Assembly: GCA_964561945.1 (NCBI GenBank)
Contig: CAZLQM010000002.1
Span: 13,087 to 77,086 of the forward strand
DNA length: 64,000 nucleotides
Direction of reading: 5' to 3'
DNA from: an uncultured Gammaproteobacteria bacterium
Lineage (GTDB): Bacteria; Patescibacteriota; Microgenomatia; CAYXHB01
A program made the position numbers and the translations under genes. Below, piece after piece: positions 41,487 through 64,000 of this stretch (position 1 is the first letter of the stretch; each line of letters begins with the position of its first letter). The notes below the pieces were generated by a model. It was not told the origin of the DNA and searched no databases. It saw only the letters and a list, made by a program, of their open reading frames with translations.

Positions 41487-41552
41487 TCACGAAATAATAC
41501 CACAACCAATTCATACAAATCCTAACGCAATTCAATAAATATTCATTTATTA

Positions 41553-44325: not shown

Positions 44326-44352
44326 ACAATTCTCTCAACCCTGTTATCTTCC

Positions 44353-44628: not shown

Positions 44629-44753
44629 AACAGTTTAATCTAATTTCTTTAATTACTTCATCCCGAACTAGCTCAAACATTAATTCTGCCAAAATACCCA
44701 AAAATCAACCACAACCCCTACTCACGCCATTGAGTCTATCCCAAAATAACCTT

Positions 44754-44975: not shown

Positions 44976-45096
44976 CTCCTTTTATTTTCATATACAACCT
45001 CATTATCCTACTAATCCGCTATATTGTAAAAAGATCTTCACACCTTTCCGATTCAATAAAACACACCCTCACCATCATGCTAAAATTTTTGTAAAC

Positions 45097-45855: not shown

Positions 45856-46252
45856 GCAATAACTCTCAAATCTAACGAAGCCATTTACATTCATCAGTCC
45901 TCATAATCCACACATCCATACACCACATCCTCAAAAAATATCAATATCTCACCACTCCAAAAATATCTAGCATAACTTTTAAGTAATCCACATTTACTAC
46001 ATCGATAAGTAATTATTTCTTTAGAATTCTCCAATTTAGTAAATAATCCTCCTCCGCTTATCTTTGTAGTCCATTTGGATTTTACCGCACCGCCATATGC
46101 ATAGTCCGCGATAAAACCCGCTTCTCAAACACCTCCACATTCAGGACACTTTTGAGTTACTTCCACAAATTCTAAGTTTGATTTTAGCATATATTACCCA
46201 AACCCCTTGCCTCACTCAACTAAGAAACAAACCTCTACGATTACCCCAAGCA

Positions 46253-46756
46253 TCATTCTCCAACCGCTTTTTTGATTGTCTCAATATCAAGCTTTTTCAT
46301 TGGCATAAATGCTTCTGTTACAGCCTCAGATTTATCTGGATCTCTCATATACTCATCCAAGATCCTAGGCGTAACCTGCCATGTCACACCGAATTTATCT
46401 ATACACCAACCACATTGTTCCGCTTCAGGTACAGCTGAGAGCTTTTCCCAAAAGAAATCGATTTCTTCCTGAGTTTCACATTCAATAATAAAAGAAACCG
46501 ATCCATTCAGCTTAAATTGTTCAATCGGTCCTCCATTCAGAGCCATAAAACTTATCCCGTCTAGTTCGCATTCAATAGCCATGACAGAACCTTCAGGCCG
46601 TCCAGAAACTTCTTCAGAAGCCTTAGGCGCTCTTGTAACATCTCCAAGTTTGGCCTCATGATTACCGGGCGCTGATCCAAAGACATCTAAATAATACTTC
46701 ACTGCCTCTTCTCCGTCATTATTAACAAACCAAATACATGTAATCAATCTACTCAT
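46253..46756 (-). CDS. PhnB/YjdN-like VOC (glyoxalase-fold) family protein
   Basis: ITCIWFVNNDGEEAVKYYLDVFG and the overall pattern of the PhnB-like family. Confidence 0.65.
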   Translation of the reverse strand: MSRLITCIWFVNNDGEEAVKYYLDVFGSAPGNHEAKLGDVTRAPKASEEVSGRPEGSVMAIECELDGISFMALNGGPIEQFKLNGSVSFIIECETQEEIDFFWEKLSAVPEAEQCGWCIDKFGVTWQVTPRILDEYMRDPDKSEAVTEAFMPMKKLDIETIKKAVGE

Positions 46757-46998
46757 TCCACTTATTTTACTATATTGATTATAAAAATCTTCGTATTAAT
46801 ACTGTAAGAAATAAAACCAAATGCCCTACACCTAACCAATTCACATCTATTGAAAATATAATTATTGGCTCCCCAATTCGGCAGTTATGTTGTATCAATT
46901 GTTTCCCCAGGATCTACTAGCACAAATGAAGATAAAACTAGAGATCCTAAAGGAGCTACTAGGATCAGAATCACAATATGAAACTGTGGAGGTGAAAA

Positions 46999-47202
46999 AT
47001 GGACAATTTTGCAGATTCGCTGTATAAAATAAGAACTAGGCAAGGTAAGTTTGTTAGCCAAGTAAAGCTCTCAAAACTTTCTGGATACACTCAAACCTAC
47101 ATTTCGTTAATCGAAACGGAGAGAGTAAATCCAAGCAAACGTTGTAAAAGAGATCTTCTCCGAGCTTTGGGCGTAGATTCCCCTCATACCTATATTTCAT
47201 AG
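46999..47202 (+). CDS. XRE-family (Cro/C1-type) HTH transcriptional regulator
   Basis: LSKLSGYTQTYISLIETERVNPS matches the HTH_XRE pattern. 67 aa. Confidence 0.55.
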   Translation: MDNFADSLYKIRTRQGKFVSQVKLSKLSGYTQTYISLIETERVNPSKRCKRDLLRALGVDSPHTYIS

Positions 47203-47209
47203 AGAGAAT

Positions 47210-47600
47210 TAAGAAGATGTGTCGTCTTGGGTGCCCACCCTTGGCTTGCGGCCATCGTCTTGATTGTTTTGATAGAAGCGGTGAAACCCTAAGAAGTATC
47301 CGCAGGATCCCTTCAATATGAGTGATAATGCTCGAAGGGACGCCTAGACGTAACTAGGGATTGAGTCTAGGTAGAAGCCGTTGTTGCCCTAGCAAGGATG
47401 AGAGTGTAAGAACTGTACACACGGCAACCGTGCAGTCGCCAATGTGCAACCTCTTGAAAAGCCTGGGGTGAGGAAGAATCCAAGTCCTCAGATGCGTCCC
47501 TGAATGTAATTGCGGAGCTTCTATCAGCAAACACAAGACTACTAGGTATAAGGTTTTTCGGCATTAAATTGCCTAGGGGAACCTTATGCCTAATAAGGAA
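47210..47600. ncRNA. unclassified G-rich non-coding region with local hairpins (candidate structured RNA or element border/att region)
   Basis: ~400 nt with no convincing ORF. Composition unlike both host and neighbouring genes. Hairpins include CACGG-CAA-CCGTG. Confidence 0.25.
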
Positions 47601-47629
47601 AAAAATAATCAAATAACAATTTCAATCTG

Positions 47630-48286
47630 GTGCTAAACTATAGATATATGAACACATCCAAGAAAATTCAACTTACCCTCGTAATAATTGCCCTGATTGT
47701 TGTTGGTGTGTTGATCTGGAACAGGAAGAAACAAAGCCAGGTTGTAGCAAACATCAATAGTTATGAAGATTGTGTAGCTGCTGGCTATCCCATCATGGAG
47801 ATCTATCCAGAGCAATGTAAAACCCCAGACAACCGTACCTTCACCAGACAAATTTCAGCTACTGACGATTGGCAAGAACAAACCATTGAAGAAATTGGCC
47901 TTACCTTGCGTTATCCCGCCAACCTTATATATAGACAAGAAATTGCAGACAACGCTGGCACCATTCGAGCCGTTGGGTTTTACCTAGAGAACAATGATCC
48001 AAACAAACCTTACACCCTCTATGGACTCTACCAAGCAGATCGGCCAGCTACTATAGATGATCTAGAGAGAGCCAAGACTGAAATGGACACCGCCACTATC
48101 AAACCAGTGGAAGTTGATGGCTTTAGCGGTATTGAAGGATTGATCGAGGGTGAGAAAACCCGTTATATCACCACTCTACTAGTTGGCGATAAACTCTTCT
48201 CCGTTTCCACAATTCCACCAACTCAAGAAAACAAGACTATAACAGACAATATCTTAGCAACGTTTGCTTTTAACAATGATAACTAA
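47630..48286 (+). CDS. hypothetical secreted/membrane-anchored protein
   Basis: N-terminal TM/signal (IQLTLVIIALIVVGVLIW), no motifs. Confidence 0.4.
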   Translation: MLNYRYMNTSKKIQLTLVIIALIVVGVLIWNRKKQSQVVANINSYEDCVAAGYPIMEIYPEQCKTPDNRTFTRQISATDDWQEQTIEEIGLTLRYPANLIYRQEIADNAGTIRAVGFYLENNDPNKPYTLYGLYQADRPATIDDLERAKTEMDTATIKPVEVDGFSGIEGLIEGEKTRYITTLLVGDKLFSVSTIPPTQENKTITDNILATFAFNNDN

Positions 48287-48785
48287 CCTTGCATCTCAAC
48301 CCCTCATTTTGGTATTTTCCCTTGTCGTTTTGGCTGTTATCGCAGTATTGATTGGTAAAACTAAGCAAAAAACTAATCCTTCCAAATATAGCTACACCAA
48401 AAAAGATTTCTTCATGTCCCGAGCAGAACATGAGTGCTACGATGCCCTCATTCAAGCGGTTGGACACGACTACTATATCTTTGCCCAGGTACATCTACCC
48501 ACGATTGTCAGCCACACCATCAAAGGCCAGAGTTGGCATGGGGCGTTGAGTCACATCAACAGAAAGTCAGTTGATTTTGTTTTGTGTGATAAAAGCTATA
48601 TTTCCCCCAAACTAGCCATTGAGCTAGACGACAAGTCACACCAGGAGGAAGATAGAAAAATTCGGGATCAAGAGTTAGAGCGAATCTTATCCCAAGCAGG
48701 GGTTCCATTACTTCGTCTGGAGAATCACGGCAGTTTTGACAGTACAGCCATCCAAAAGCAAATTCAAGAAAAATTGCTCTCCTAA
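48264..48785 (+). CDS. DUF2726-family protein (restriction-endonuclease-like fold), N-terminal TM
   Basis: SRAEHECYDALIQAVGHDYYIFAQVHL ... VDFVLCDKSYISPKLAIELDDKSH...DRKIRDQELERIL matches the DUF2726 pattern. Confidence 0.6.
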   Translation: MLLTMITNLASQPLILVFSLVVLAVIAVLIGKTKQKTNPSKYSYTKKDFFMSRAEHECYDALIQAVGHDYYIFAQVHLPTIVSHTIKGQSWHGALSHINRKSVDFVLCDKSYISPKLAIELDDKSHQEEDRKIRDQELERILSQAGVPLLRLENHGSFDSTAIQKQIQEKLLS

Positions 48786-48833
48786 AACCAATTTTTATCG
48801 AGAGATATCTTTACTTTCGCTAGTGACAGACTA

Positions 48834-51263
48834 CTAGTGTTTTTTTACACGCTCCTCAATAATCTCCTGTAAAACCTTCAAGTCTGCCTCGTTCCATAGC
48901 CTAAACCGCACCTGCCCATACTTATTATCTCGATCCAGTACCGATTCTGACTTAGATAATCTCTCCCTCAACACGGCAATTTCTTCAGGTGTCGTAAACT
49001 GCAACTCCCCATATACCCAATGATTAGCGTAGTAATAAAACAAAATCATCTCATCGTCTTTTTTCAGACTATGATATGAACCTGCCCCGCCTTTTTGGAT
49101 ATACACCTCACCATCTGGGAACGTCTTATTTATCCATTCGGGAATACTAGCCACCGCACCCCGCACAAATTCACTCTTCACCCGAGCAATCGTTTCCTCT
49201 TCGGTTTCGGGCAACTTAATCCCTTTCTCCTTAATCTCTCCCACATTCCCTTGCTCAACCACCTTACTCGTAGCCCGCAATATCTGGGAAAACCACTCCA
49301 ACGCTGCCTCTCCATCCCGCTGCAACACCCGATCAATCTCTCGATTGTGCTTCACTGCATTGCGAAAATCTTTGTAAGCAATAAACCGTTTCTCCACCTC
49401 AAACTTAGATCTGAATATCTGCTCAAAGTATTTCCAGTTTTTCAGGATGATATTGGAGTAATCCATAATGTCACAAAACTCCAACAAATCCTTAACCGTC
49501 AGCTCTTCCCATTTCTTAGAGGGGTTCTTTTTTAGAAACTGCGTGATCTTCTTTTTAGCATTACCCTGCACATCAGAAGGTATCACCTTATCCCAATAAT
49601 CCTCACCCTCCTCATCCAAAAGCACCGCATTTATCAACGCCCGCAGTTGGATTTCTATCTCATCAATCGCCTTATTGGCATTATGTCCCGCCACCTGCAA
49701 AATCTTAGAACCCACCAGCCGCTCAAACTCATCGAAAATAGCCTGTGATCTATTCTGGATAAACTCACCATAGTCATTATTACGAATCGAGTCATCGTAG
49801 GAAATCAGTTGTGCATCCAACGCTTCCCTAAAATCTGGGTTTTCCTGATCATATTCTGCAAAATAGTCACTAGGGGCTTTCCTGCGAATCTCCTTGTTTA
49901 ATTCAGCAGGAATAAAACAGAAGTTGGATAACAAATACTCTCCAGGGATTTTGTTAGCTTTGAGATAGTGGCGGGGAAAGATGTGGTGTTTCTCAGGGCT
50001 ATTAAACTCAGCACAGATGTTTCGATCCAAAGCAAAAGCCTGGTTGGTTTTGAAGTGTCGAGGTTGACGTAAGGCCAACATACAGAAAAAAGCGTTGCGA
50101 ATAGCCGACTTGGTGCTGATCCTACTCTTGGCGATCTTGTCCTTATCCAACGTGATCGGATAACTAATCTTCACTTCCTTACCCTCAACCAGCTTATCAA
50201 ACAACACCCGCCGATCCTCTTCCATCCGTGTCTCACGGGAGGTAGCGTACCGCTCGCTCAATGCCGACTGCCAAAACCACTCATGCACTCGCTCAGTCAT
50301 CACTTTATCTAACGATCTCCCAGGGATCTTAAAGTACAAATAGGCCAGCAGTGAGATCATGGGTGGATACGGTACAAACTCGTATATCTTGGCTCCCAAA
50401 TTGTTAGACAAAAAATCAACCGATAGCTTGATAGCGTTGGCAATCTCTTCCCAGTGTTCCTTCAACTCTTCTTTGTTTAGCTGTAGTTGGTACGACTTCC
50501 TGCAATAACCCTTAATAATCAGTGATGCTGCATGAACCACCACCTCAGGCGGGATCTTGCCAAACCCTTTATCTTCCAAATACTTAGCCAACTTTAGGTA
50601 TTCAACCTTCAAGTCAAAATCCTCACCCCACGTACTAGCCACCACTAAGTCAAAAATAGATAGTCGTTTACCACCCTGATTGATCCGCTCAAATATCACA
50701 ATCGCCTCATCCAATTCCTTCTCCCGAACAAAGATAACTGATAACGGATAGCTGGAAAAAATGCTGTTACACTTATCAAAGATCCGTTTCCGTTGATCGG
50801 TTAGTTTGTTGTACATCTGGAACTTGTTGTCTCCCAAAATATCCCGCAGTGGAGCAGCGTTGTCATGTTCCCGATACCGAATCACAAATTTTTCCTTGTC
50901 AAAGTCAAAACAAATCTGAGAGTAATCAGTGCCGTTAATGGTTAAGCCCTTGATAGCAGCATAGAGGGAAGTTGCCCGTTGTTGGCCGTCCAAGATGTAG
51001 CGAATTGAAGTGTAGGTGTCAGGTGTGGGCAAATCCAGTTCGGCGATGTTTCGATAAAACAGGTTATATTTCTTGTCAGCATCCCAGACAAAAAAGCTTC
51101 CAATCGGATACTCCTTATAGATAGAATCCAACAACTTCACCACTTTAGATCGTTCCCACACAAAATCTCTCTGAAATCTAGGGATCCTCAAATGCCCATG
51201 CTCGATGTCATGGACAATATCTGATAGCTTTAACTCATCAACTTTTATTTTCTGTATCTGCAT
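48834..51263 (-). CDS. GmrSD-family type IV (modification-dependent) restriction endonuclease (DUF262 + DUF1524) with ~250-aa C-terminal extension
   Basis: DUF262 signature RIPRFQRDFVWE...LDGQQRATSL. DUF1524 His-Me signature SPEKHHIFPRHYL. Confidence 0.85.
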   Translation of the reverse strand: MQIQKIKVDELKLSDIVHDIEHGHLRIPRFQRDFVWERSKVVKLLDSIYKEYPIGSFFVWDADKKYNLFYRNIAELDLPTPDTYTSIRYILDGQQRATSLYAAIKGLTINGTDYSQICFDFDKEKFVIRYREHDNAAPLRDILGDNKFQMYNKLTDQRKRIFDKCNSIFSSYPLSVIFVREKELDEAIVIFERINQGGKRLSIFDLVVASTWGEDFDLKVEYLKLAKYLEDKGFGKIPPEVVVHAASLIIKGYCRKSYQLQLNKEELKEHWEEIANAIKLSVDFLSNNLGAKIYEFVPYPPMISLLAYLYFKIPGRSLDKVMTERVHEWFWQSALSERYATSRETRMEEDRRVLFDKLVEGKEVKISYPITLDKDKIAKSRISTKSAIRNAFFCMLALRQPRHFKTNQAFALDRNICAEFNSPEKHHIFPRHYLKANKIPGEYLLSNFCFIPAELNKEIRRKAPSDYFAEYDQENPDFREALDAQLISYDDSIRNNDYGEFIQNRSQAIFDEFERLVGSKILQVAGHNANKAIDEIEIQLRALINAVLLDEEGEDYWDKVIPSDVQGNAKKKITQFLKKNPSKKWEELTVKDLLEFCDIMDYSNIILKNWKYFEQIFRSKFEVEKRFIAYKDFRNAVKHNREIDRVLQRDGEAALEWFSQILRATSKVVEQGNVGEIKEKGIKLPETEEETIARVKSEFVRGAVASIPEWINKTFPDGEVYIQKGGAGSYHSLKKDDEMILFYYYANHWVYGELQFTTPEEIAVLRERLSKSESVLDRDNKYGQVRFRLWNEADLKVLQEIIEERVKKH

Positions 51264-51303
51264 ATCGTATTTTAGTAATTATTACTAAACTCAACACATA
51301 AGG

Positions 51304-54300
51304 CTATTTCTCTCCCGTCCAATCGCGGGCTAACAATTCTGCTTGCTCCAACATCGTCTTGGTTGCACTTTCCTGTTTATCTGGTGGATATTTGTACTTC
51401 TTCAACAACCGTTTTACATAAACTCGCAACCTAGCTTGAATACTCTCCTTAATCGTCCAGTCTATTGTTGTATTCTTGCGAAGCATCACCACCAACTCTT
51501 TAGCCATTGCCTTCAAGGTTTCATCTCCCAACTCTCGCACGGCACTCTCGTTGTTAGCTAGTGCATCATAAAAAGCCACTTCATCCTCAGTTAATCCCAA
51601 ATCTTCACCTTTGTTTTTCTCTGTCTTAATCTTCTTGGCCAGCTCTAACAATTCGGCAATAACCTGAGCTGCTTCAAGTGTGCGGTTTTGGTATTTCCTA
51701 ATCGTTTCCGCCAGCATTTCGGCAAAAGATCGAGACTTCACCAAATTGGTTCTTTCCATCATCTTTAATTCGTCATTCAAGAGTTTCTTTAACAGTTCCA
51801 AGGCCACGTTCTTGTGTTTCAAATTCTTCACTTCCTCTAAAAATTCCTCAGAGAAAATAGAAATGTCGGGAGCTTTGATGCCAGCTGCCGAGTAAATATC
51901 AACCACCGCATCAGAAGTCACCGCCGTTGAGACGATTTGTTTGATAGCTGCATCATAATCTTCATCTGTCGGGCCTCCTCCATGAGGTTCCATTTTGACT
52001 AATCCACTCTTAACAATCTGGAAGAATCCCACCTCGTCTTTAATCTCCAATGCCTTGTCGTGTGGTACTGCCAAAGAGAATGACTTAGATAGTTCAGTCA
52101 CCGCTTTCAAGTATCGTTTCTTTCCATCTGTTAACCCCAAAACAAAATCTGTAGCTCCCGAAATAACCTGAGTTCGCTCACCAGGAGTACCAGTAAAGTA
52201 TTTTTGATAGTCATATCCATGCAACATTCCCTTAACCACTTCATACTTTTCCATCAACACCGCCACCGCTTCATCCTGTGGGATAGCTGTTTCTTGTCTA
52301 TCGGTTTCGCTGTAGTAGGAGAGGGCTTCCTTCAGTTCAGGAGCAATGCCAATATAGTCAACGATCAAACCACCTTGCTTATCCTTATACACTCGATTCA
52401 CCCGAGCAATCGCTTGCATCAACCCATGCCCCTTCATCGGTTTGTCTACATACATAGTATGAAGAGAGGGCACGTCAAAACCAGTTAGCCACATGTCTCT
52501 TACGATCACCAACTTCAACTCATCCTCAGGATCTTTCATTCTTCGAGCCATTTCATCGAGTGCATGTTTAGGGCGAATGTGAGGCTGGAAGTTCATCGGA
52601 TCGGCAGCACTGCCTGTCATCACAACCTTGATAAACCCCTTGTTATCATCATCACTATGCCAATTGGGGCGAAGTTTAACAATCTCGTTATACAAATCCA
52701 CCGCAATTCTACGACTCATGGCCACGATCATACCCTTACCATCAATGGCTGATAATCTGTTCTCAAAGTGATCCACTAAGTCACGAGCTACCAAAGCAAT
52801 TCGTTTTTCCGATCCCACCATTGCTTCCAACCTTGCCCACTTACTCTTCAGTTTTTCCTTTCGCTCAACCTCTTCACCCTCGGTTAATTCTTCAAATTCT
52901 GGATCAATTCTTGGCTGTTCTTCTTTCTTCAATTCAATTCTGGCAAGTCTAGCTTCGTAATAGATCGGTACGGTAGCATTATCTTCAACTGCTCGTGTCA
53001 CATCATAAACATCAACATATTCACCAAACACTGCCCGAGTATTCCTATCCGTTAATTCAACAGGTGTACCAGTAAAACCAATAAACGAAGCGTTAGGTAG
53101 AGCATCACGCAAATGACGAGCAAACCCAGTGATAAATTCATACTGGCTTCGATGTGCCTCATCCGCAATCACCACAATGTTTTTCCGATCAGACAACATG
53201 GGGTATGAAGTATGGCCATTTTGAGGTAGAAACTTTTGGATAGTGGTAAAGATAACCCCACCAGAGGCTACATGTAGTAATTCTTGTAACTGTTCTCGAC
53301 TATCAGCTTGCTTGGGGGTTTGCCTAAGCAATTCACTACATCGAGAGAAAGTACCGAAAAGCTGTTGATCCAAGTCATTGCGATCCGTCAACACAACTAA
53401 AGTCGGATTGTTTAGCTCCTGCACCACTTTGCCTGAATAAAACACCATTGTTAGACTTTTACCTGATCCCTGCGTATGCCACACCACACCAGCCCGCCTG
53501 TCTCCCTCCTCTTTGGTAGCCTTCATAGTACTTTCGACTGCTTTATTAGTCGCATAGTATTGATGATAAGCCGCTGCCTTCTTGATAGTTTTATCGCCAT
53601 CCGTATCAAAGACAATAAAGTTTGAGATCAAATCCAGTAAACGACTCTTATCAAAAATTCCTTTAAGTAAGACTTCCAACTGTGGCAAGGCAGTAGGGGC
53701 AAGTTCTTCACCATCAACAGTTCGCCAACGAGTAAACCATTCGATACTTGCCGATATTGTACCCACTCGAGCATCAATTCCGTCACTGATGACGCAAAGT
53801 TCGTTATAGGCAAAGAGGGTAGGAATATCTTGTTTGTAGGTTTGAATCTGGTTGTAGGCGTTTTTTACTGTTGCCTTCTCATCCCCAGGATTCTTCAATT
53901 CAATCACCACTACAGGCAAACCATTCACAAACACTATTACATCTGGCCGTCTGTTGCGGTTGTTTTCAATGATCGTATATTGATTGACTGCCAAAAAGTC
54001 ATTTGATTCTAAATCCCCAAACTCAGCCAATTTCACCTTATCGCCAGCCACCGAGCCATCATCCCGCATGTATTCAACATCCACCCCATCACGCAAGTAT
54101 CCATGAAAGATCTTGTTGTTCATTACTAAACTAGGGGTGGCGTGGGCAACCTGCACCACCTTCTTAAATGCTTCTTCCTTGGCATCTTCGGGAATATCTG
54201 GGTTGAACTTGTTGATAGCACTTCGAAGTCTATCTACCAACACCACATCACCATAGCTCTCACGTTCTGGGTTCTCACCGTCCGGAGGAGGGGCAATCTC

Positions 54301-54384
54301 AGGGCCTCCAACCACTGAGTATCCCAGCTCTTCGAGCCAATCAAGGGTTGCTAGTTCTAGATCTGTTTCTGTGTATTTAGCCAT
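51304..54384 (-). CDS. hsdR: type I restriction enzyme R subunit
   Basis: N-terminal [22 protein letters not shown], helicase motif I TQGSGKS, motif II DEAHRSQ, 1026 aa. Confidence 0.95.
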
Positions 54385-54386
54385 TT

Positions 54387-55679
54387 TTATCTGCTTTTTT
54401 TTAACTTATTCAACATATTATTGAAGGTGTCTCTTAAGTCATCATAAGTGAATATCTTTATATTTTTTAGTGAGTTATTTAGTCTCTTAAAGTCATTTTT
54501 CATTTTTACCTTTTTGCTGTTACTAAAACTGCTGGTTTGTTTGCCTGCCAACATTGATCTAGAGCCAGCGATGATATAGACACTCGGCCTTACAGCATCA
54601 ACATTTATATTGTATTCATCTCTTATATTTTTGATTACTTCTGCTTCTCTGCCAACAACGGCATCAATATAATTTTCAGATTGTGAGACAGCTTTAGCTA
54701 TATCAGCATGCCAATAAAAATTGTTTCTTCCCGAATCGAAACTTAGAATCTGTGTTAGATGAGTTTTGATTTCATAAATATCCAAAAAACTATAAGTGTC
54801 CAAAAGTATGAAGTCTGGATAATTTACTTTTTTGTCTCCGAATACTTTTTCCTTTTCAAATCTATCGACATACCCAAAGTTAAAATACAAAATGTTATCT
54901 CTTAGGAAGCCTTGCCATTTATCTTCTAATCGTTTTGAGTTAGATTTTTGATTCAAGATCTTGTCGAAATCCTCAAGGATTTTTTCGAAATATATATAGT
55001 CAACCTCTTTCTTTGTAGCAACAATTTTTTCTTTGCTCTGAGTAGTCTGGTTTTTTAATGAGTTTGATAAAAGACTCGTGAGCTTATTCACCTCATCATC
55101 TGTCAAATCCGTGGCATTAACACCATATCGACTGAAAATTCTTGATATTTCCCCAGTCGGATATCTTTGTGTTGCTTTCTTAAATGCTGAAGGGAAAATA
55201 TCATATAAAAGATTATTTACAATCGTTTCTGACTCATCCTTATGCTTCGTAAGCATGTCTTTTATTTGTCTACGAGCTTTTTCAAGCACTTCGTAACTGA
55301 GAACAATTGTTCTTTTTAGTATCTGAGATGAACGTTTTTGTGATACTACCAATCTGTTAACACTGGGGTACTCCTTTTGGAGTTTATATAAAAGTGGGCT
55401 AAGCTCTCTGGTGAATCCATACCCCGTCTTATATGATTTAAGAAAACCTGGCGGTAACGTTTTTATAACAGCAACATCTTCATAACAGATTTCTTTGATA
55501 TTGTTATACTTTTGTTTCCCATCCCTCAGATTAAAAGGAAAGTGTGCTTCTTTATGCTTATAGACTTCTCTGGATTTCCTATCTATCGCTCCAGATTCAT
55601 CTGCATAGAAAAACACTGTTTTATTTTTTAGTAGCTGCTTTTGATACTCTGCCTTATCGACTTTTACGTTTTTATGCAT
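54387..55679 (-). CDS. protein with C-terminal Shedu/DUF4263-like PD-(D/E)xK nuclease-fold domain and unknown N-terminal domain
   Basis: [17 protein letters not shown]...[27 protein letters not shown]...[17 protein letters not shown] has the D...D/ExK...Q..Y arrangement of DUF4263. Start is 2 nt upstream of hsdR and 7 nt downstream of the ATPase. Confidence 0.5.
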
Positions 55680-55686
55680 ACATTGT

Positions 55687-57102
55687 TTACAGATTTATTT
55701 CTTTCAAATACTCACGCATTTTTTCTATTGAACTTCTCAGTGAAGTTGGACCTGGCCTACCATTATCCCGAGCGTGATGAATCTGATTTCTTATAAAAGT
55801 GTGTACACTAACCTCATTCGGATTACCCATCCAAGGTGAATTGGCTGGTTCATTATGTACTCGCTGGAAATAATCTACATCGTATGGTTTAATCTTTTTT
55901 CCTTGTCCGTTTTGATAATATAACTCCTCATATAGTTCGTTATGATATTCCTCGGTAGCCAATCCAAAAGCTAAAAAGTTGACTTCGCTAGACGAAATAT
56001 AGGGCAACAGTCTATCCTCCACTGGAACTACTGACACATCATTACCATTTTTTTTCAAAACATTTGCCTGCACTGATTCATTGAAAAACAACTGTTTTAC
56101 TAACAAGGGTGAATGTGTGGTTATTATTATTTGTGCAGTTTTAGAAAATTCGATCAATAAATCTACAAACTTACCTTGAAGCGATGGATGTAAATGCAAC
56201 TCTGGCTCGTCTATCAACACGATAAGTTGTTTACCACTCTGTTGAGAAAGATAGAAAGAATACAGCAATGAAAAGATCATCTCATAACCAGATCCCATCA
56301 TATCTAAAGGAATTTGTTGATTGTTTTCCTTCTTCTTAGCAAAAAAACACTTTCCAAATGGTTGCCAATTGTCAACAAAGTTGAGTGAAATCTTCGAACC
56401 GCTCACTTCCTCGAATTTATTGATTGCACTTACCAATAATTCATTTTCCACTGAAGCCTTAACCGCATCCAGCTTCGCACTTTCGTCTTCAATCCCATCT
56501 TCTTTACCCTTAATATACTGATAGTTGAAGTCCTCCATTAAACGATCAAAGCGGGTAGAGTTGTATGTCCCAGATCTAATTTGAAAAGTCCTATTTCGAT
56601 CCAAAAATAAAATATCATTTTCACTAAATCTTTGCCCCTTAAAAGGGTTGTTTACGTTAACACGAAGATCAGGACTGTTATCGCTAGGCTTCGACTGATT
56701 ATCTGCCTTAATAAATTTTTGATCGCTGACAACAATCGAAGATAAATATGATTGATTTCCTCTAGATCTAACACCCGCCTCAAAAGAAAAACCCTTCGCT
56801 TGAAATGAGCCTCTCGGCATTGTACCGTCAACCTCGAAGTTTCCACTAGCTAAGACTTCGATATGAGATTTCTTGTCAGGATCATCAAAATCCTGCAAAG
56901 AGAAACTCTCTGCCTTGTAATTCAAAAGTGGTAGTGCAATAGCATCGAGTAACGCTGTTTTTCCACAACCATTCTCACCAACAAACACAGAAAGGCCACT
57001 GCCCTCATTAGTGTCATCAGGAATGTTAATATCATCCAAAGTAAATATGCTTTCCGATGGAAATAGCCTAAAATTTTGTACTTTTATTGTTTTTATAAAC
57101 AT
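55687..57102 (-). CDS. ABC-type (AAA_15/AAA_21-family) ATPase with possible HEPN-like (R-x4-H) C-terminal tail; PrrC/OLD/PtuA/AriA-like
   Basis: IKVQNFRLF, Walker A GENGCGKTALLDAI, LIVLIDEPELHLHPSLQ (Walker B/D-loop), IIITTHSPLL (H-loop) and C-terminal FIRNQIHHARD. Confidence 0.6.
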   Translation of the reverse strand: MFIKTIKVQNFRLFPSESIFTLDDINIPDDTNEGSGLSVFVGENGCGKTALLDAIALPLLNYKAESFSLQDFDDPDKKSHIEVLASGNFEVDGTMPRGSFQAKGFSFEAGVRSRGNQSYLSSIVVSDQKFIKADNQSKPSDNSPDLRVNVNNPFKGQRFSENDILFLDRNRTFQIRSGTYNSTRFDRLMEDFNYQYIKGKEDGIEDESAKLDAVKASVENELLVSAINKFEEVSGSKISLNFVDNWQPFGKCFFAKKKENNQQIPLDMMGSGYEMIFSLLYSFYLSQQSGKQLIVLIDEPELHLHPSLQGKFVDLLIEFSKTAQIIITTHSPLLVKQLFFNESVQANVLKKNGNDVSVVPVEDRLLPYISSSEVNFLAFGLATEEYHNELYEELYYQNGQGKKIKPYDVDYFQRVHNEPANSPWMGNPNEVSVHTFIRNQIHHARDNGRPGPTSLRSSIEKMREYLKEINL

Positions 57103-57104
57103 AC

Positions 57105-57797
57105 TTAGCCAATAAGATCGTCAACTTTAATTTCACCCGCCAACATTAATGGCATAATTTTATTAATTATCGCTTTTATGCTTTTATTTCTGTCATGGAT
57201 TCTTAACATTTCTTCAGCAGTACTAGAAGATTGCTCGATAGGGACACCTAATAACTCCACATATTGGAGAGAACTAATAAAATTGACTACCTTATCTTGT
57301 TCTTCCAGAGTAGGTACTGCAATTTCGAACTCAAACAAATCATACTTATACAATTCAGGATAGGTTGAACCGTTCGCAACCTTATCAAGATACAACTTAT
57401 TCACCTTTAACCAGTAGGCGAGGTATTTTGGCCTTATCATTGGGCCACACTCGAAGTTAAGAAACCCTTGATTTGTGGCCATTGGAACGGAGTTAATAAC
57501 GACACAACCAACAGGTGCTCTTTTTGACAACATCACAGTTCCTGGCTGAAGAATTTTTGCTGAGCTACTTGCTATACCTTCATGAGTTACATATCTTTCT
57601 GTCGAACTCACATAGAGTTGTCCATCTAGATTTGTGATTTCTTTTGGGGTTAACCATGGGATATTCCCTCCCCAGTAGTTATCGTTTCTAGTACTCGGTG
57701 TACTACCACTGCTGACATTTTTAATAATGCCATCTTTTGAAGGCATTAGAGTACTTTTTAACCACTTTGTCGGTTGATCTAAATATGGTTTAGCCAT
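57105..57797 (-). CDS. hsdS: type I R-M specificity subunit, single-TRD (half-size) form
   Basis: GSTPSTRNDNYWGGNIPWLTPKEI...LQPGTVMLSKRAPVG pattern of an HsdS target-recognition domain. 230 aa. Confidence 0.85.
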   Translation of the reverse strand: MAKPYLDQPTKWLKSTLMPSKDGIIKNVSSGSTPSTRNDNYWGGNIPWLTPKEITNLDGQLYVSSTERYVTHEGIASSSAKILQPGTVMLSKRAPVGCVVINSVPMATNQGFLNFECGPMIRPKYLAYWLKVNKLYLDKVANGSTYPELYKYDLFEFEIAVPTLEEQDKVVNFISSLQYVELLGVPIEQSSSTAEEMLRIHDRNKSIKAIINKIMPLMLAGEIKVDDLIG

Positions 57798-59316
57798 TTT
57801 TTACTTTCAACAAATTTTCTTTAACTAATAGTGATAACTTTGTAACTTCATTTAAACGTCTTTCAATAATATCCATAGAGGTTACTAGCTCATCTTGACT
57901 TACCTCAATCTTTTCCTCATCACTAAAACCAACATACCTACCAGGAACCAGGGCATATTGATGTTCAGCGATTTCTGACAATTTTGCAGAGTAAGTAAAA
58001 CCAGAGGCATTTATATATTGTGGTTGAGTTTTCCATTTTTTATATTCATTGACTATTCGTGAAATTTCTTCGCTCTTAAATACCTTATGCGTTCTATCTT
58101 CCAGCACACCCCATGATCGAACATCAACAAACAACACCTCCCCTTGTCGGTTCCTCTCATTTGTCCTTTTGTTTCTTGTTACAAACCAGAGTGATGCTGA
58201 AATTTGTGTGTTGTAGAACAATTGTGTGGGCAGTGATATAACACAATCTATTAAATCGCTATCAACCAATGACTGTCTTATTTGTTTTTCAGATTTCTTA
58301 TTTGTTGACAATGATCCATTTGCAAGAACAAACCCAGCGATGCCTGTAGGTGAGAGGTGATGGATAAAATGCTGAATCCAAGCATAGTTAGCATTGCCAG
58401 TGGGCGGAGTGCCGAATTTCCACCGCACATCATCTTTGTATTTCTCTCCACCCCAGTCACTATCATTGAAAGGAGGATTGGCCAAAACAAAATCAGCCTT
58501 TAGATCTGGATGCTGATCTTTGGCGAAACTATCGGCATTTCCCTCACCTAAATTCCCCTCGATACCTCGAATAGCCAAGTTCATTTTGGCTAACTTCCAA
58601 GTAGTCGGATTGCTCTCTTGTCCGTATACCGCAATATCACCAACTCTACCGCCATGCTCCTCTACAAATTTCTCGCTCTGAACAAACATCCCACCACTAC
58701 CACAGCAGGGATCAAATACACGGCCTTTGTAGGGCTCTATCATCTGTACCAACAGCTTTACCACAGAAGCAGGAGTGTAGAACTCACCGCCACCTTTACC
58801 CTCGGCACTGGCAAATCTACCGATAAAGTATTCATACACACGGCCTAACAAATCCTTTGACTTTGATTCTTTATCACCCAAACCAAGAGAGCTAAAAATA
58901 TCAATAATTTCACCCAATCGTTGTTTGTTGAGATCAGGGCGAGCATACCTTTTAGGGAGAACGCCCTTAAGGCTCGGGTTTTCCTTTTCGATGGCGATCA
59001 TGGCATCATCCACAATCTTGCCGATTTCTGGCTTCTTGGCGTTTTGCTTTAGGTAATCCCAGCGGGCAATCTCTGGCACCCAAAATACATTTCTCGCCTT
59101 GTAGGCGTCTTTGTCTTCCCACTCACCGTCATAGGCTTCTGTGTCATTCTTGATGGATTGATAGGTTTCTTCGAAAGAATCGGAGATATATTTGAGGAAA
59201 ATAAGGCCAAGCACCACATGTTTATATTCAGCAGGATCCATGTGGCCACGCATCTTATCTGCTGCTGCCCATAATTTCTTTTCGAAACCAAGATTAGCTG
59301 ATGTTTGTTTTGTCAT
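57790..59316 (-). CDS. hsdM: type I R-M N6-adenine DNA methyltransferase subunit
   Basis: HsdM N-terminal domain, SAM motif DPCCGSGGM and catalytic VLANPPFN. Start trimmed from 59424 to the MTKQ Met to remove overlap with the Xis-like gene. Confidence 0.9.
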   Translation of the reverse strand: MTKQTSANLGFEKKLWAAADKMRGHMDPAEYKHVVLGLIFLKYISDSFEETYQSIKNDTEAYDGEWEDKDAYKARNVFWVPEIARWDYLKQNAKKPEIGKIVDDAMIAIEKENPSLKGVLPKRYARPDLNKQRLGEIIDIFSSLGLGDKESKSKDLLGRVYEYFIGRFASAEGKGGGEFYTPASVVKLLVQMIEPYKGRVFDPCCGSGGMFVQSEKFVEEHGGRVGDIAVYGQESNPTTWKLAKMNLAIRGIEGNLGEGNADSFAKDQHPDLKADFVLANPPFNDSDWGGEKYKDDVRWKFGTPPTGNANYAWIQHFIHHLSPTGIAGFVLANGSLSTNKKSEKQIRQSLVDSDLIDCVISLPTQLFYNTQISASLWFVTRNKRTNERNRQGEVLFVDVRSWGVLEDRTHKVFKSEEISRIVNEYKKWKTQPQYINASGFTYSAKLSEIAEHQYALVPGRYVGFSDEEKIEVSQDELVTSMDIIERRLNEVTKLSLLVKENLLKVKNG

Positions 59317-59344
59317 AATTTTCTTAATTCTCTTATTTAATTTT

Positions 59345-59536
59345 CTATCTATTACGCGAGATGTACGCTTCGATGTCTTTCTTGCGATACCGTCTATCTC
59401 CCACACCTTTGCGATTGCCCACACGGACGGCTTTGAGTAATCCCTGCCTGTCCCATCGCCGAAGCGTCTGGGTGCTTACATTCAAAATCTTTGCTGCTTG
59501 CTTAATGGAAAGCAATTCCTCAAGTTGTTCATTCAT
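59345..59536 (-). CDS. excisionase/MerR-type HTH (HTH_17) DNA-binding protein
   Basis: LSIKQAAKILNVSTQTLRRWDRQGLLKAVRVG. Confidence 0.65.
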   Translation of the reverse strand: MNEQLEELLSIKQAAKILNVSTQTLRRWDRQGLLKAVRVGNRKGVGDRRYRKKDIEAYISRNR

Positions 59537-59843
59537 ACAAGTTAATCTTTATTATACAAAATTGTTCAAACAAAAAGAATGTATAAATCTAGTTAGTGGC
59601 TAGTTTATTACCCCTACTTATTAACTGGATTCCTATTAACTCCAAAGACTATTTCTTACTGATTTTGCCTAGAAGTAATAGACTTGAAACAGAAATAACT
59701 AGGGATGTTCATAACCCTAGTTACATTTACAAAATATGTGTATGTAGGGATATAAACCCAAGGCTGACAACATCTCAGACAGACATGCTTTAAATTCAAT
59801 GGAGATCAAAATGTACAATCCTGCTGGGGAGGGGTATGCCTGA

Positions 59844-60083
59844 TCACTTATCTTCTTTCTTACTAAACAACGTTTCCTTAACTGGATAGTCATTGCTTCC
59901 ATATTCATCCAAAAAATCTTCAATCGCTTTTTGTGTAAACCTATACTTCCCTTTAGTGCCAGGCAACTTAACGTACTTGATTTGTTCATTACGACACCAA
60001 CGCCTTACGGTTTCACCGCTAACGCTAAACATTTTCATTAGATCTTCAACTGTGTACTTAAACTCAAGATTTATGTTGGACAT
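59844..60083 (-). CDS. excisionase/AlpA-type HTH (HTH_17) DNA-binding protein
   Basis: LMKMFSVSGETVRRWCRNEQIKYVKLPGTKGKYRF. Start trimmed to MSNIN. Confidence 0.6.
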   Translation of the reverse strand: MSNINLEFKYTVEDLMKMFSVSGETVRRWCRNEQIKYVKLPGTKGKYRFTQKAIEDFLDEYGSNDYPVKETLFSKKEDK

Positions 60084-60397
60084 AATAAGTAGGATTGTAA
60101 ACATTTTATGCACGCAATGCAACTAGTGCTTGACATTCAGTTAATAATTGTTAATAATGAGGTTATGTTGCATAACATGTATAACGTGCATAATAAGAAG
60201 GGATGTCAAACAACCAAGAGTGAATGGTTGGATGTACTAGCCCAGAAGATCGCCGAAGTTCGGTTATCAGAACTTGGGTTTAATTTCATCCCAGGCATTG
60301 CCCCTTACTTCAAAAGGTTCAGGAAAAGTCTGGAGGCTAAGGCCTTCATAGTTAAGAGTGTGAGTTTAGTAAGAAATGATCCAAATACTATAAAAAG

Positions 60398-60715
60398 ATG
60401 AAAAAACGTGCTTACGGTTTCGTTAGGTGGAACAAAGAGAAAAACTCAACTCCCCCTCTCGAAACACAGAAAGCACGCATCAATGACTACTGCAACAAAA
60501 ATAAACTCGAATTGGTAGAAACTTTTGTTGACACTTCATCCCCCGTTCATAGTGTGTTCGATCAAATGATGTCTAGGTGTAGGAAAAAAGACTCAATCCA
60601 AGAGATTGTAGTCACTAGCTGGGACAGGATTTCTGATGACGAAACCGAATTTTGCCTCATCGAAACTATCCTAGATCGAAAACATATTAAGTTAATCAAA
60701 TTGGAGGAACTATGA
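60398..60715 (+). CDS. resolvase N-terminal-domain-like protein lacking catalytic serine
   Basis: Collinear with serine-recombinase catalytic domain (..ELVETFVDTSS...IQEIVVTSWDRISDD), but the YxRVSxxxQ position reads FVRWNKEKN. Confidence 0.4.
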   Translation: MKKRAYGFVRWNKEKNSTPPLETQKARINDYCNKNKLELVETFVDTSSPVHSVFDQMMSRCRKKDSIQEIVVTSWDRISDDETEFCLIETILDRKHIKLIKLEEL

Positions 60716-61176
60716 AAAACAAAAAACAAACCAAGAAAGCAGTGGTGTACGCCAAAGTAGCATCACCAGCAGTAGATACTACCCAACAATCAACTGATTC
60801 ACAGGAAAGGGCATGTAGGGAGTGGGCAAGGCAAAATGGTTACGAAATTGTCGGCGAGTATCAAGACGTTTGCTTCAATGACTCAAAACTAGACGACAGA
60901 AAAGCATTGATTGATACCATTGCGAGATGTCAGAGCAAAACTAGCCCGATTGACGTATTGCTTGTTACAGATTTGGATAGGTTATCCAGAAACACCGTTG
61001 AGCTACTTTTTATCAAAAGCCAGATTGATTTGAACGGCACAAAAATAATTACTGTAAACCAGCAAATGACAGAAGATTTCACAAAAGGCCAGCTATTCGA
61101 ATCTGTTATCGCAAGTGCTAATGCTTTTTCTAGAACAATTGAAAGGAGGAAATATGAAAAAAGCAGTAATCTATAA
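60712..61176 (+). CDS. resolvase-domain paralog (N-terminal domain only, catalytic Ser apparently replaced)
   Basis: Residue-by-residue paralog of the downstream recombinase N-domain (AVVYAKVASP vs AVIYNRVSDA; VLLVTDLDRLSRN vs VLLVIDTDRLARN). SD GGAGGA upstream. Confidence 0.5.
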   Translation: MKNKKQTKKAVVYAKVASPAVDTTQQSTDSQERACREWARQNGYEIVGEYQDVCFNDSKLDDRKALIDTIARCQSKTSPIDVLLVTDLDRLSRNTVELLFIKSQIDLNGTKIITVNQQMTEDFTKGQLFESVIASANAFSRTIERRKYEKSSNL

Positions 61177-62644
61177 TCGCGTATCTGATGCGGGACAACT
61201 TGAGGGACAATCCTTAGAGGTACAGCAAGAGTTGTGTGCTAAATGGGCACGAGAGCACCAGTATCAAGTAGTAGGCGTGTTTACCGATGCAGCCAAGAGT
61301 GGCACCAAAACAGTCGGGCGTGAGGCTTTGGATGATGCCATTATTAGATGTACAGACAAATCTGATCCAGTTGATGTGTTACTTGTCATTGATACAGATA
61401 GACTTGCCAGAAACGAGGTTGATCACTTCTTTATCAAAAATGAATTGAAGAAAACCAACACTCGAATAGTGGCTATCAATCAACCGATGATAAATGATAC
61501 TGCTGAAGGCCAGTTTTTCGAAACCATCATGGCTGGCACCAATGCCTTTTATAGTAGATTGACAGGTAGAAAAGTTAAGAAAACCTTAGAGAAGAAATGC
61601 CGAGATGGTGATTGGCCAGGCCCTCCGCCGTTAGGTTATGTTAACGCCAACATTGGCACCAAAGACAAACCTCATCGAGTTATAAAGATTGATCCAGAAC
61701 GAGGAAAATACTTGACTGAGATGTTTCGGCTGTTTAGCACGGATAAATACAGTGTCGATCAGATCCGAGATATGCTCTATGAGGATGGATTGAGATCCAA
61801 AAATGGCAAAAAAGTGTCTCGCAGTTGCCTCTACAGCTACCTCAAAAATGTTTTCTATATTGGCAAGTTCGTATATAAGGATGAAGAGTACAGAGGAAAT
61901 CACAAACCACTTACCACCAAGACGATCTTTGATCTATGTCAGAAGATAATGGAGAGAAACAACCACAACGCCTGTAGACGAAGGAAATACAAATGGTTGC
62001 TTACAGGTGTGGCCTACTGTCATAAATGTGGCTCCAGACTGTATTGCAGCCATAACCACAAAAAGAAGATGGCCTACTATCACGGCTCATACCCTAAAGG
62101 TTGTAAGCAATATATACCATTGGAAGAGTTAGAGGATTTAGTAGCCGAAGAGTTGAAAAACATCAAGTTTTCAGAGGAGTTTAAGCAAAAGATACATGAC
62201 AAAGCCAAAGAGTTGATCCAACAGACAAGAGAGTCCCGAAATGAGGAGGTTCAGCGTCTAAGGAACAAGGTTAAGGCTCTAGAGACAAGAAGAAACATCC
62301 TAGAAGATAGCCTGCTGGATGGAACAGTTGATAAGGCCACTTTTAAGAGGAAGCATGGGGAGATCAACTATGAGATCCAGGGATACGAGAATGATATTGC
62401 CAATATCGAAAACCAGAGAGGCTTTGATGTTAATCTAGCCTCCGAGATACTCGATCTGGATACCAATCTATACGAAACGTACCAGAACGCCGTTTTTGAG
62501 GCCAAGAAGCATTATCTATCTATTTTCTTTGAAAAAATCGAGGTAGCAGACAAAAAGATCCAACATGTAACCTATTCGCCATTGTTTCAAAAACTACTTG
62601 ATGCCGAACAGGTTACAGTTAGTTCGAAAAGGCTCCCCGACTAG
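61154..62644 (+). CDS. large serine recombinase (integrase)
   Basis: Resolvase domain IYNRVSDAGQ...DRLARN, recombinase domain, Zn-ribbon CHKCGSRLYC, coiled-coil. Strong SD AGGAGG at 61145-61150. Stop codon lies inside the 3' end of tRNA-Asn. Confidence 0.85.
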   Translation: MKKAVIYNRVSDAGQLEGQSLEVQQELCAKWAREHQYQVVGVFTDAAKSGTKTVGREALDDAIIRCTDKSDPVDVLLVIDTDRLARNEVDHFFIKNELKKTNTRIVAINQPMINDTAEGQFFETIMAGTNAFYSRLTGRKVKKTLEKKCRDGDWPGPPPLGYVNANIGTKDKPHRVIKIDPERGKYLTEMFRLFSTDKYSVDQIRDMLYEDGLRSKNGKKVSRSCLYSYLKNVFYIGKFVYKDEEYRGNHKPLTTKTIFDLCQKIMERNNHNACRRRKYKWLLTGVAYCHKCGSRLYCSHNHKKKMAYYHGSYPKGCKQYIPLEELEDLVAEELKNIKFSEEFKQKIHDKAKELIQQTRESRNEEVQRLRNKVKALETRRNILEDSLLDGTVDKATFKRKHGEINYEIQGYENDIANIENQRGFDVNLASEILDLDTNLYETYQNAVFEAKKHYLSIFFEKIEVADKKIQHVTYSPLFQKLLDAEQVTVSSKRLPD

Positions 62645-62704
62645 GACTCGAACCTAGAACCTTGAAGTTAACAGCTTCCTGCTCTGCCATTGAGCTATCG
62701 GGGA
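62633..62704 (-). tRNA. tRNA-Asn (GUU)
   Basis: Manual fold gives acceptor UCCCCGA/UCGGGGA, D-arm GCUC-AAUGGC-AGAGC, anticodon loop CUGUUAA and T-arm CUAGG-UUCGAGU-CCUAG. Confidence 0.85.
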
Positions 62705-62829
62705 TTAATTTTTAAATAGCCAATACTTACAAAACCCAAAAAGTACCAACTGCACGCTATTATACTCAAAACCCCCAAATTTTAGAAACACTAAAAAACT
62801 CCTCCCGTTGTGATATAAATTTATCTACC

Positions 62830-63681: not shown

Positions 63682-64000
63682 TCTCATCCTCCCAATCTAA
63701 TAACTACAATTCCCTCCAATCCAAAGACCCAATAAATATCTTATAGTATTGCAATAACAACTTACATGCAGTATAATCGCCAACAAGGTTTCTTGTATCA
63801 ATGATCTAGTCATTTTCGACCGGATTAATATACATCTAAACCGCTCTTTGAAAATCCAAGTTTATAAGAATTAGAAAAATCTCGTTTGCTTGTTTATCGT
63901 TTTAAAACAAGCCCCTGTGTTAGCATAAATTTAAGTTTTTCTTGTTCCCTTCGGGGACAGAAAGGAAGTGTCTCATGCGCAACTGGCGCAATCTTACATG

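Follow-up and report, generated by a model that had tools for sequence, protein, structure and literature searches.

Within contig CAZLQM010000002.1 (GenBank assembly GCA_964561945.1), a stretch of 64,000 nucleotides (contig positions 13,087 to 77,086; hereafter the window, whose own numbering is used throughout) contains a block of recombinase and defence genes that abuts a tRNA-Asn gene and differs in base composition from the DNA around it. This raises the question of whether the block is a mobile element, where precisely it begins and ends, and by what means it came to lie at this tRNA. Our analysis indicates with high confidence that positions 46875-62638 (15,764 bp, one copy of the crossover core counted in) form an integrative genomic island that lacks functions for self-transfer, belongs to a family found in Patescibacteria (the candidate phyla radiation), and is targeted to tRNA-Asn by its own large serine recombinase. 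The insertion and its precise ends can be observed directly, as can the core, the lack of the island in a sister strain, its presence in further hosts and the swapping of its cargo; the island is real, recently acquired and precisely bounded. The locus is a fully delimited example: attL, attR and attB are defined to the base, a strain with the empty site exists, and a second host carries a sister copy. A tRNA-targeted island is in itself a textbook kind of element; the variant found here, with a serine recombinase, an 8-bp core, a recombinase open reading frame (ORF) that runs over attP, a Patescibacteria-wide distribution and tRNA-specific clades, is apparently undescribed as far as our literature searches show, which returned no description of the family.

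The ends of the island were fixed using an exact look-up of the VOC-family protein encoded to its left, which returned six contigs from sibling samples. Three of these (loci L056, L057 and L059) carry the occupied left junction and are 100% identical to the window, as are L001 and L002, and one (L061; SRR5576005, 1,026 bp) stops 46 bp short of the core and is uninformative. The remaining two, L058 (ENA ERZ795034) and L060 (JGI 3300014350), match window positions 39295-46874 at 99.9% identity and then continue directly with 62631-62799. The two alignments overlap by 8 bases, GGCTCCCC, which are present only once; attB as reconstructed can be read there letter for letter, and the tRNA shows no difference. 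Because this empty-site junction joins position 46874 to position 62631 with the 8-bp overlap, the island comprises 46875-62638. The initial annotation had proposed a foreign island at the 3' end of tRNA-Asn and had suggested looking for relatives with an empty site; the exact empty site next to a 99.9%-identical flank, together with a break in skew and a sister island, supports that proposal, as did each of the suggested checks that could be carried out, although the extent given there (46790-62704) started about 80 bp too far to the left and took in the host tRNA at its end. The block is present in one and absent from the other of two otherwise near-identical genomes, as is characteristic of a site-specific island.

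The target is an intact host tRNA-Asn(GTT) gene (62631..62704, - strand; ARAGORN, Rfam 64 bits), which lies outside the island, has the same sequence at the L058 empty site, and points its 3' end towards the island. The attL core, GGCTCCCC, occupies 46867..46874, where the empty-site junctions of L058 and L060 overlap, and similarity to the sister island L048 starts at 46868. The attR core at 62631..62638 covers the last four acceptor-stem bases, the discriminator base and CC, and also holds the Leu-Pro codons of the recombinase. A flanking direct repeat and a recombinase gene at one end, its last base at 62644, are therefore both present. Taken alone, GGCTCCCC is not significant, with 3 copies in the window vs 0.8 expected and 5 of 100 shuffles reaching 3; what identifies it as the att core is the empty site together with the sister island. 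The octamer shared with the tRNA end had been noticed from the start, one position off (46868-46875 in place of 46867-46874), and it proved to be the real crossover core, at which similarity to the sister island begins. The base before GCTCCCC is T in the L048 host and G in this one, so the exchange took place within GCTCCCC. The common core is therefore 7-8 bp long, within the short range (2-12 bp) of serine integrases; reported common cores are 5-8 bp for serine integrases and 25-76 bp for tyrosine integrases acting at tRNAs (PMC8092301), and an 8-bp core consequently fits serine integrase behaviour.

The base composition of the window places the ends of the island at nearly the same positions. 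The + strand of the host DNA shows an extreme excess of C, with a GC skew of -0.434 over positions 1-46866 and -0.337 over 62705-64000, and the GC skew of 46868-62637 is -0.122. In 1-kb windows the host mean is -0.44 (standard deviation 0.09, n=46) vs -0.13 for the island (standard deviation 0.11, n=15; Mann-Whitney p=2e-8). Without any prior coordinates, a maximum-likelihood fit of two breakpoints to the G and C counts placed them at 46880 and 62719; these coincide with the predicted ends and confirm the skew discontinuity anticipated in the initial annotation. Of the C+A excess claimed there for the host + strand, the C component holds and the A component does not, the host AT skew being +0.03 overall and inconsistent in sign (-0.10 to +0.15). 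At third codon positions the + strand GC skew (GC3 skew) lies between -0.65 and -0.79 in host genes of both orientations and between -0.39 and +0.01 in island genes; since it is alike in host genes of either orientation, the host bias is a property of the strand and not of coding.

One may postulate instead a resident host defence locus, with an odd composition caused by gene orientation or expression and with recombinases that act as phase-variation invertases of hsdS. Type I systems are often phase-variable through recombinases, and the hsdS gene here is only half-size. This explanation is refuted, however, by the exact empty site in a 99.9%-identical strain; furthermore, host genes show host-like skew whichever way they are oriented, a second copy of hsdS is lacking, and the island contains no inverted repeat beyond 34 nt at 71% identity. 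We accordingly give it next to no credence, and a shufflon or phase-variation arrangement was rejected for lack of meaningful inverted repeats.

That the block is an inserted island is also apparent from its sister copy, which we reached via a member of the GmrSD cluster and which lies on contig SRR29876768_54316 (L048/L062). This island is 19.4 kb long, has a backbone 82-95% identical to that in the window and a different central cargo, and occupies the tRNA-Asn of its own host. Similarity starts exactly at window position 46868 and ends within the tRNA, and everything beyond is unrelated: the sister host has another tRNA-Asn sequence, other housekeeping neighbours, and a host skew of only -0.14 to -0.18. 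The same element, bounded by cores, is thus found in a different genomic background, again as a site-specific island would be. The most conserved part is the left end (46875..47129, + strand), which comprises the P' arm of attP, the region upstream of an XRE regulator gene and the 5' half of that gene, and which differs from L048 by 1 substitution in 255 nt, vs a divergence of about 5-7% elsewhere.

Comparison among islands separates a constant backbone from a variable cargo slot, which is bounded by the first HTH_17 gene and the DUF262 gene and differs even among elements with 95%-identical DUF262 genes. The slot holds a type I restriction-modification system, an ATPase and a Shedu nuclease in the window, a type ISP enzyme and an SMC-like ATPase in L008/L052, and a PLD-SNF2 helicase and an MmeI-like enzyme in L048/L062. 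On the tRNA side the order is conserved as HTH_17 (at the head of the cargo operon), second HTH_17, small ORF, resolvase-like ORFs and recombinase, and a second backbone block at the far end comprises the genes for the DUF262 and DUF2726 proteins, a functionally unassigned gene and the XRE regulator.

The gene that presumably carried out the integration is that of the large serine recombinase (61154..62644, + strand; 496 amino acids (aa) from the ATG at 61154, with an alternative GTG start at 61115 given by the ORF lister). Its product contains Resolvase (PF00239), Recombinase (PF07508) and Zn_ribbon_recom (PF13408) domains and, in a 34-sequence alignment that includes it, has all family-invariant residues, among them S11, R9, R83 and R86; the catalytic domain with its nucleophile Ser, the Recombinase domain and the zinc ribbon of a large serine recombinase are all in place. 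With A118, phiFC1 and TP901-1, serine integrases that have been characterised, it shares only about 25% identity. The last codons, R-L-P-D-stop, cross the att core into the tRNA, and the stop codon (62642-62644) falls within the tRNA (62631-62704), just as the initial annotation had stated.

These features suggest a mechanism in which the recombinase would exchange attP, located in the last codons of its own gene, with attB at the extreme 3' end of tRNA-Asn(GTT). The crossover would fall inside the 7-8 bp common core (G)GCTCCCC, which would then be duplicated at both ends of the island. The predicted junctions are ...GTTAGTTCGAAAAGGCTCCCCAATTCGGCAGTT... for attP and ...ATATAATTATTGGCTCCCCGACTAGGACTCG... 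for attB, and the junction of an excised form would read GTTAGTTCGAAAAGGCTCCCCAATTCGGCAG. The tRNA would stay intact, its 3' trailer alone being altered: the ...GCCA encoded at the empty site has become ...GCCT at attR (62630-62633 vs L058). The codons (T/A)GG CTC CCC encode W/R-L-P, and family members with a TGG (Trp) recombinase codon at the core retain CCA.

The recombinase would act as part of an integration module that flanks the variable cargo slot and consists of two HTH_17/excisionase-like genes, a small ORF and, besides the recombinase itself, two resolvase-domain proteins that are catalytically dead. The first HTH_17 gene (MerR-like; 59345..59536, - strand; PF12728 in L001, PHROG excisionase/regulator E=1e-11) stands at the head of the cargo operon and is kept in every island whatever the cargo, at the same position in L004, L008, L009 and L062. 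The second (59844..60083, - strand; PF12728 E=1.5e-10, PHROG_66) is of the excisionase family. The recombinase operon opens with a small conserved ORF (60108..60401, + strand) that has 90% amino-acid identity to L008, with a ratio of nonsynonymous to synonymous divergence (dN/dS) of 0.14, and that likely starts internally, giving about 70 aa. It is followed by two resolvase-domain-only genes. The protein res105 (105 aa; 60398..60715, + strand; PF00239 E=2e-9), identical in L008, is without the catalytic R9 and S11 when aligned to the recombinase N-terminal profile. In res154 (154 aa; 60712..61176, + strand; PF00239 E=2e-23) the alignment spans the whole catalytic domain, the D-R-x-S-R motif is kept, the nucleophile column holds Ala in four diverged elements, and comparison with L008 gives a dN/dS of 0.16 at a dS of 1.7. 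The two genes had initially been taken for truncated resolvase paralogs; they are indeed resolvase-domain-only ORFs, but they have not decayed, being conserved under purifying selection without the nucleophile Ser, and are conserved pseudo-enzymes, not debris. Dead paralogues of this type are confined to the closest subclade, where they might act as partner or directionality subunits.

Relatives of the recombinase indicate that tRNA targeting is a property of the wider family. A total of 290 homologues were found at E<1e-10, the named ones being Patescibacteria/Microgenomates proteins, and 50-odd loci were retrieved. Where the recombinase is at least 44% identical, the core followed by a tRNA-Asn 3' half was present at 17 of the 21 informative loci; the four exceptions are a tandem array (L023), two long-tailed forms (L027 and L054), and L008/L052. 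In the array (L023 10001-19696) two elements stand in tandem at one tRNA-Asn, and the second recombinase abuts the tRNA. On the 266-kb contig of L008/L052 no tRNA follows the recombinase, and conserved tail-coding sequence (LKDLFCNH..EF; L008 11475-11600) is found instead. We first read this junction as a possible attP or pseudo-site; it is not random, since P0292 has the tail-coding sequence too. At 31-36% identity, the tRNA that the recombinase abuts is tRNA-Lys(TTT) or tRNA-His(GTG). In each of 16 tested loci that adjoin a tRNA, the end of the recombinase ORF falls 10-42 nt into the antisense tRNA, which places the attP core in the final codons of the gene across the clade. Serine recombinases are thereby found to target tRNA 3' ends, a role usually ascribed to tyrosine integrases, with sub-clades for tRNA-Asn, tRNA-Lys and tRNA-His. 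Because the att sites are short and the tRNA targets conserved in the phylum, they could serve as the basis of genetic tools for bacteria of the candidate phyla radiation.

Two of the target genes are themselves interrupted. Group I introns in tRNA-Asn(GTT) were identified at L018 6900-7107 (RF00028, 75 bits) and L025 11540-11754 (69 bits), in Beckwithbacteria and Daviesbacteria metagenome-assembled genomes (MAGs), where they split the anticodon loop between CTGT and TAA; ARAGORN missed these two genes because of the intron. L016 and L041, which have a tRNA 3' half without an ARAGORN call, probably carry such an intron too.

The location of attP within the recombinase gene invites a bolder proposal, namely that cassettes with this arrangement are a Patescibacteria-wide class in which the integrated and free states express different enzymes and the dead resolvase paralogues set the direction of the reaction. 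On integration, a tail of about 40 aa (...IT.LED..Y...LRE....IK...) would be replaced by a few residues encoded by the antisense tRNA. About 25 of 120 homologues have a conserved tail of this length right after WLP, integrated copies end in antisense-tRNA peptides (...DSN...), and the upstream recombinase of the L023 array gains the conserved tail by reading into the left end of the next element. In the island studied here, the reconstructed attP lengthens the recombinase ORF by 50 codons (p about 0.03 by composition), for a predicted form of 545 aa. No resemblance to the tail could be detected in these 50 open codons, however, and the dead paralogues are restricted to the closest subclade. 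The recombinase's 90% cluster contains no 545-aa member. A conserved tail encoded by the left end of this island was rejected after two profile searches gave no match (best E about 97). We consider the proposal rather doubtful as a whole and claim no C-terminal switch for this element. An attP inside the integrase gene is familiar from the myxophage Mx8, in which intP becomes intX, and from SSV-type archaeal integrases. The present family resembles these, and mycobacteriophages, in having a crossover within the 3' end of the recombinase ORF, such that integrated and free C-termini differ; those enzymes are tyrosine recombinases, however, and here only the residues after ...RLP change, with a role for the tail no more than a candidate. 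Integration-dependent immunity in mycobacteriophages is mentioned in PMC8092301.

Several points weigh against our interpretation of the locus as an island of this kind and call for caution. No circular or attP junction that would attest to present-day excision was recovered; a degenerate attB/attP/attL/attR pattern scan of metagenome contigs matched only an unrelated tRNA-Asn (L055), but it also missed the known attR contig and the source sample was absent from it, and its negative result is uninformative. The island-free strain differs from the window beyond the tRNA as well, a 163-aa acetyltransferase (L058 51-559) replacing a 283-aa ORFan (window 62800-63686); owing to this replacement it must be regarded as a sister strain and not as a fresh excision product. 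Only 11-12 of 22 positions around the core show dyad symmetry, too weak a signal to fix the central dinucleotide. Moreover, we infer the phylum of the host from where relatives of the island occur, and the defence function of the cargo is predicted from family membership. As a separate observation, DNA on both sides of the tRNA-Asn gene varies between strains.

The missing excised form bears most directly on a scenario in which the insertion is genuine but now fixed and unable to excise. Integration strips the recombinase of the C-terminus beyond the core, and the encoded CCA of the tRNA has been changed to CCT at attR, both of which would be compatible with a terminal event. On the other hand, no damage is seen in the recombinase, the two att cores or any module gene, all of which are under purifying selection, the island is polymorphic for presence and absence between strains with a 99.9%-identical flank, and near-identical backbones occur in different hosts. 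Permanent fixation is possible but on balance unlikely, and an island that can still excise, perhaps helped by the HTH_17 or dead-resolvase proteins, agrees better with these observations.

The island could also be a decayed prophage or phage satellite that has kept its integrase and some defence genes. The recombinase and HTH_17 proteins do match PHROG integrase and excisionase families, and distant relatives of the recombinase include the phage integrases phiFC1 and A118. Beyond integrase and excisionase, however, the PHROG matches in the island consist of one family of unknown function, and Pfam gave no prophage match; genes for capsid, terminase, portal, tail, lysis or replication were seen neither here nor in about 12 related islands inspected; the sole relative of the recombinase on a viral contig is only 26% identical; and the same compact architecture recurs across hosts, which points to a type of element and not to independent decay. 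A phage origin of this sort therefore appears very unlikely. Much the same applies to an integrative conjugative or mobilisable element. Movement between hosts is observed, from which we infer some route of cell-to-cell transfer, and a VirD4/TraD-like protein of the host (9858-12233) could in principle mobilise the island. The resemblance of that protein to coupling proteins is weak, though, and inspection of the island and its relatives turned up no relaxase, oriT-associated or type IV secretion gene; among island ORFs of at least 90 aa there was no match to a relaxase, secretion system, capsid or terminase. We consider a conjugative or mobilisable nature highly improbable.

The cargo of the island, taken as an integrative element without transfer genes, would protect its host against phage. 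The initial gene list of mobility and defence functions was confirmed by Pfam, PADLOC and PHROG, except that it was said to be complete: besides these genes the island has one of unknown function, together with a candidate structured RNA. The largest component is a type I restriction-modification system in one operon. It consists of hsdM (57790..59316, - strand; N6_Mtase E=4e-103, HsdM_N; start at 59316 by the JGI call in L001, giving 508 aa, where the ORF lister runs to 59424), a half-size hsdS with a single target-recognition domain (57105..57797, - strand; 230 aa, one Methylase_S domain at E=8e-20), and hsdR (51304..54384, - strand; HSDR_N, SWI2_SNF2 and T1RH-like_C; PADLOC REase_I 1176 bits). 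In this copy an ATPase and a Shedu-type nuclease have been inserted between hsdS and hsdR. The ATPase (55687..57102, - strand) is of the AAA_15/AAA_21 type and AriA/PtuA/GajA-like by Pfam and PADLOC; the nuclease (54387..55679, - strand) has the SduA_C/DUF4263 domain that defines Shedu (PF14082 E=3e-20; PADLOC SduA E=1e-26). From hsdS to the Shedu gene (54.4-57.8 kb) the G+C content is low, at 0.33-0.38 vs 0.41-0.44. In L009, hsdM and hsdR are 77% identical in DNA sequence, hsdS is full-size (427 aa), and the SduA protein in the same position is only 25% identical; the ATPase/Shedu position is thus a slot within the slot.

Defence genes such as PARIS or HEC candidates are known to be embedded in hsd or Hma operons, and the present ATPase and nuclease, placed between hsdS and hsdR in a position that varies among islands with 77%-identical hsdM and hsdR, follow that pattern. 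The pair is not PARIS: the ATPase matches AriA models (E=2e-34), but its neighbour is a Shedu-type (DUF4263) nuclease and not the Toprim protein AriB. It also differs from canonical Shedu, which is a single gene, in being an ATPase and nuclease pair. Independent assemblies of the occupied strain break at 53571 (in hsdR; L056 and L057) and at 56712 (in the ATPase gene; L001 and L002), leaving 53.6-56.7 kb unassembled, and the break may reflect heterogeneity of the population in the Shedu/ATPase slot.

The remaining defence genes belong to the far backbone block. The DUF262 (GmrSD_N) protein (48834..51263, - strand; 809 aa), a candidate type IV restriction enzyme, matches PF03235 at E=1e-31 over residues 13-209 only and the PADLOC models PDC-M55C, HEC-05 and PDC-M34B, and its gene has 95% nucleotide identity to those of L008/L052 and L048. 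It had been described as a GmrSD-family type IV enzyme; the N-terminal DUF262 domain agrees with this, and Pfam adds nothing further, no DUF1524 being detected in the C-terminal half when scanned alone (E<=1), where an HHIFPRHYL motif is visible by eye only. Next to it lie a DUF2726 protein of a restriction-endonuclease-like fold family (48264..48785, + strand; PF10881 E=6e-29), which is kept in L048, and a functionally unassigned backbone gene (47630..48286, + strand; 93% nucleotide identity to L048) for a 218-aa protein with an N-terminal membrane anchor and no Pfam, PADLOC or PHROG match. The block ends with the XRE-type HTH regulator (46999..47202, + strand; 67 aa; HTH_31 E=7e-6, HTH_3 E=2.6e-4; PADLOC control-protein and capH models), in which substitutions relative to L048 are on third codon positions.

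Bacteria of the candidate phyla radiation are uncultured, have tiny genomes and mostly lack CRISPR, and little has been documented about the acquisition of phage defences by these organisms and their exchange among them. The family described here moves restriction-modification, Shedu, DUF262 and further defence genes among them, and its variable cargo slot is a place in which to seek new ones. Among known elements it is reminiscent of staphylococcal cassette chromosomes (SCC/SCCmec), which integrate at the 3' end of rlmH/orfX by means of the Ccr large serine recombinases. Both lack transfer genes, use a large serine recombinase at the 3' end of a housekeeping gene that is not inactivated, are bounded by short direct repeats, have swappable cargo and can form tandem arrays (compare L023). 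In contrast to SCCmec, the target here is a tRNA and not a protein gene, there is one active recombinase with dead paralogues in place of two active Ccr proteins, the recombinase ORF crosses the att core, the host is of another phylum, and the recombinase has no more than about 25% identity with large serine recombinases that have been characterised.

With P4-like tRNA islands and the tycheposons of Prochlorococcus the family shares the tRNA 3' end as a hotspot whose flanks vary between strains on either side of the tRNA, modular cargo that includes defence genes, and integrase clades dedicated to one tRNA. Those elements, however, depend in the great majority of cases on tyrosine recombinases (910 of 937 in the study of tycheposons; bioRxiv 10.1101/2020.12.28.424599) and leave partial-tRNA repeats of about 25-76 bp, whereas the present island has a serine recombinase, an 8-bp core and no partial tRNA copy; with a recombinase of the serine type and no replication gene, it is not a tycheposon. 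The serine integrases of A118, phiFC1, TP901-1, Bxb1 and phiC31 are similar in domain architecture, in their short core and in having small candidates for excisionases or directionality factors nearby. Characterised serine integrases target protein-coding genes or intergenic sites, usually disrupting them (PMC8092301), and the clade described here differs in targeting tRNA 3' ends without disruption, in islands that are not phages.

Outside its protein-coding genes the island contains a candidate structured RNA (47275..47462, + strand; fold z-score -4.0; about 190-260 nt in wider limits of 47245-47600) within a non-coding stretch of approximately 47203-47629. It is 78% identical to L023 8968-9156, which lies at a different position in another island, and 10 of 53 predicted pairs are compensatory. 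A covariance model (R1) recovered only the window and L023 copies among 40 loci, no match was found in Rfam or in a viral-contig pattern scan, and L048 holds an unrelated 713-bp non-coding filler at this place; the candidate is sporadic cargo and not backbone.

The host DNA of the window has several features of its own. Its replication-strand asymmetry is extreme: among 18 other Patescibacteria host flanks, the nearest are those of an Amesbacteria MAG (-0.33) and a Beckwithbacteria MAG (-0.30). On the right flank the 283-aa ORFan has no relatives beyond itself, and a flanking DAO oxidoreductase has none in the scanned genome-contig collection. The host carries a divergent tRNA-Met(CAT) pair, a tRNA-Ile gene whose anticodon is TAT, a tandem pair of NrdJ-like ribonucleotide reductase paralogues and two paralogues of PBP1A, in addition to the weak VirD4/TraD-like coupling-protein homologue at 9858-12233; the coordinates listed together for the host features are 5003-5214, 7910-7982, 9858-12233, 15395-20313 and 21473-27988. 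Finally, the VOC/PhnB-like gene just outside attL (46253-46756, - strand) falls in a cluster of 129 members (>=90% identity), among them one or more from a WWE3 MAG, compared with clusters of 1-3 members for other host proteins; its GC3 skew of -0.49 is intermediate, and the gene may have been acquired at this hotspot at an earlier time.

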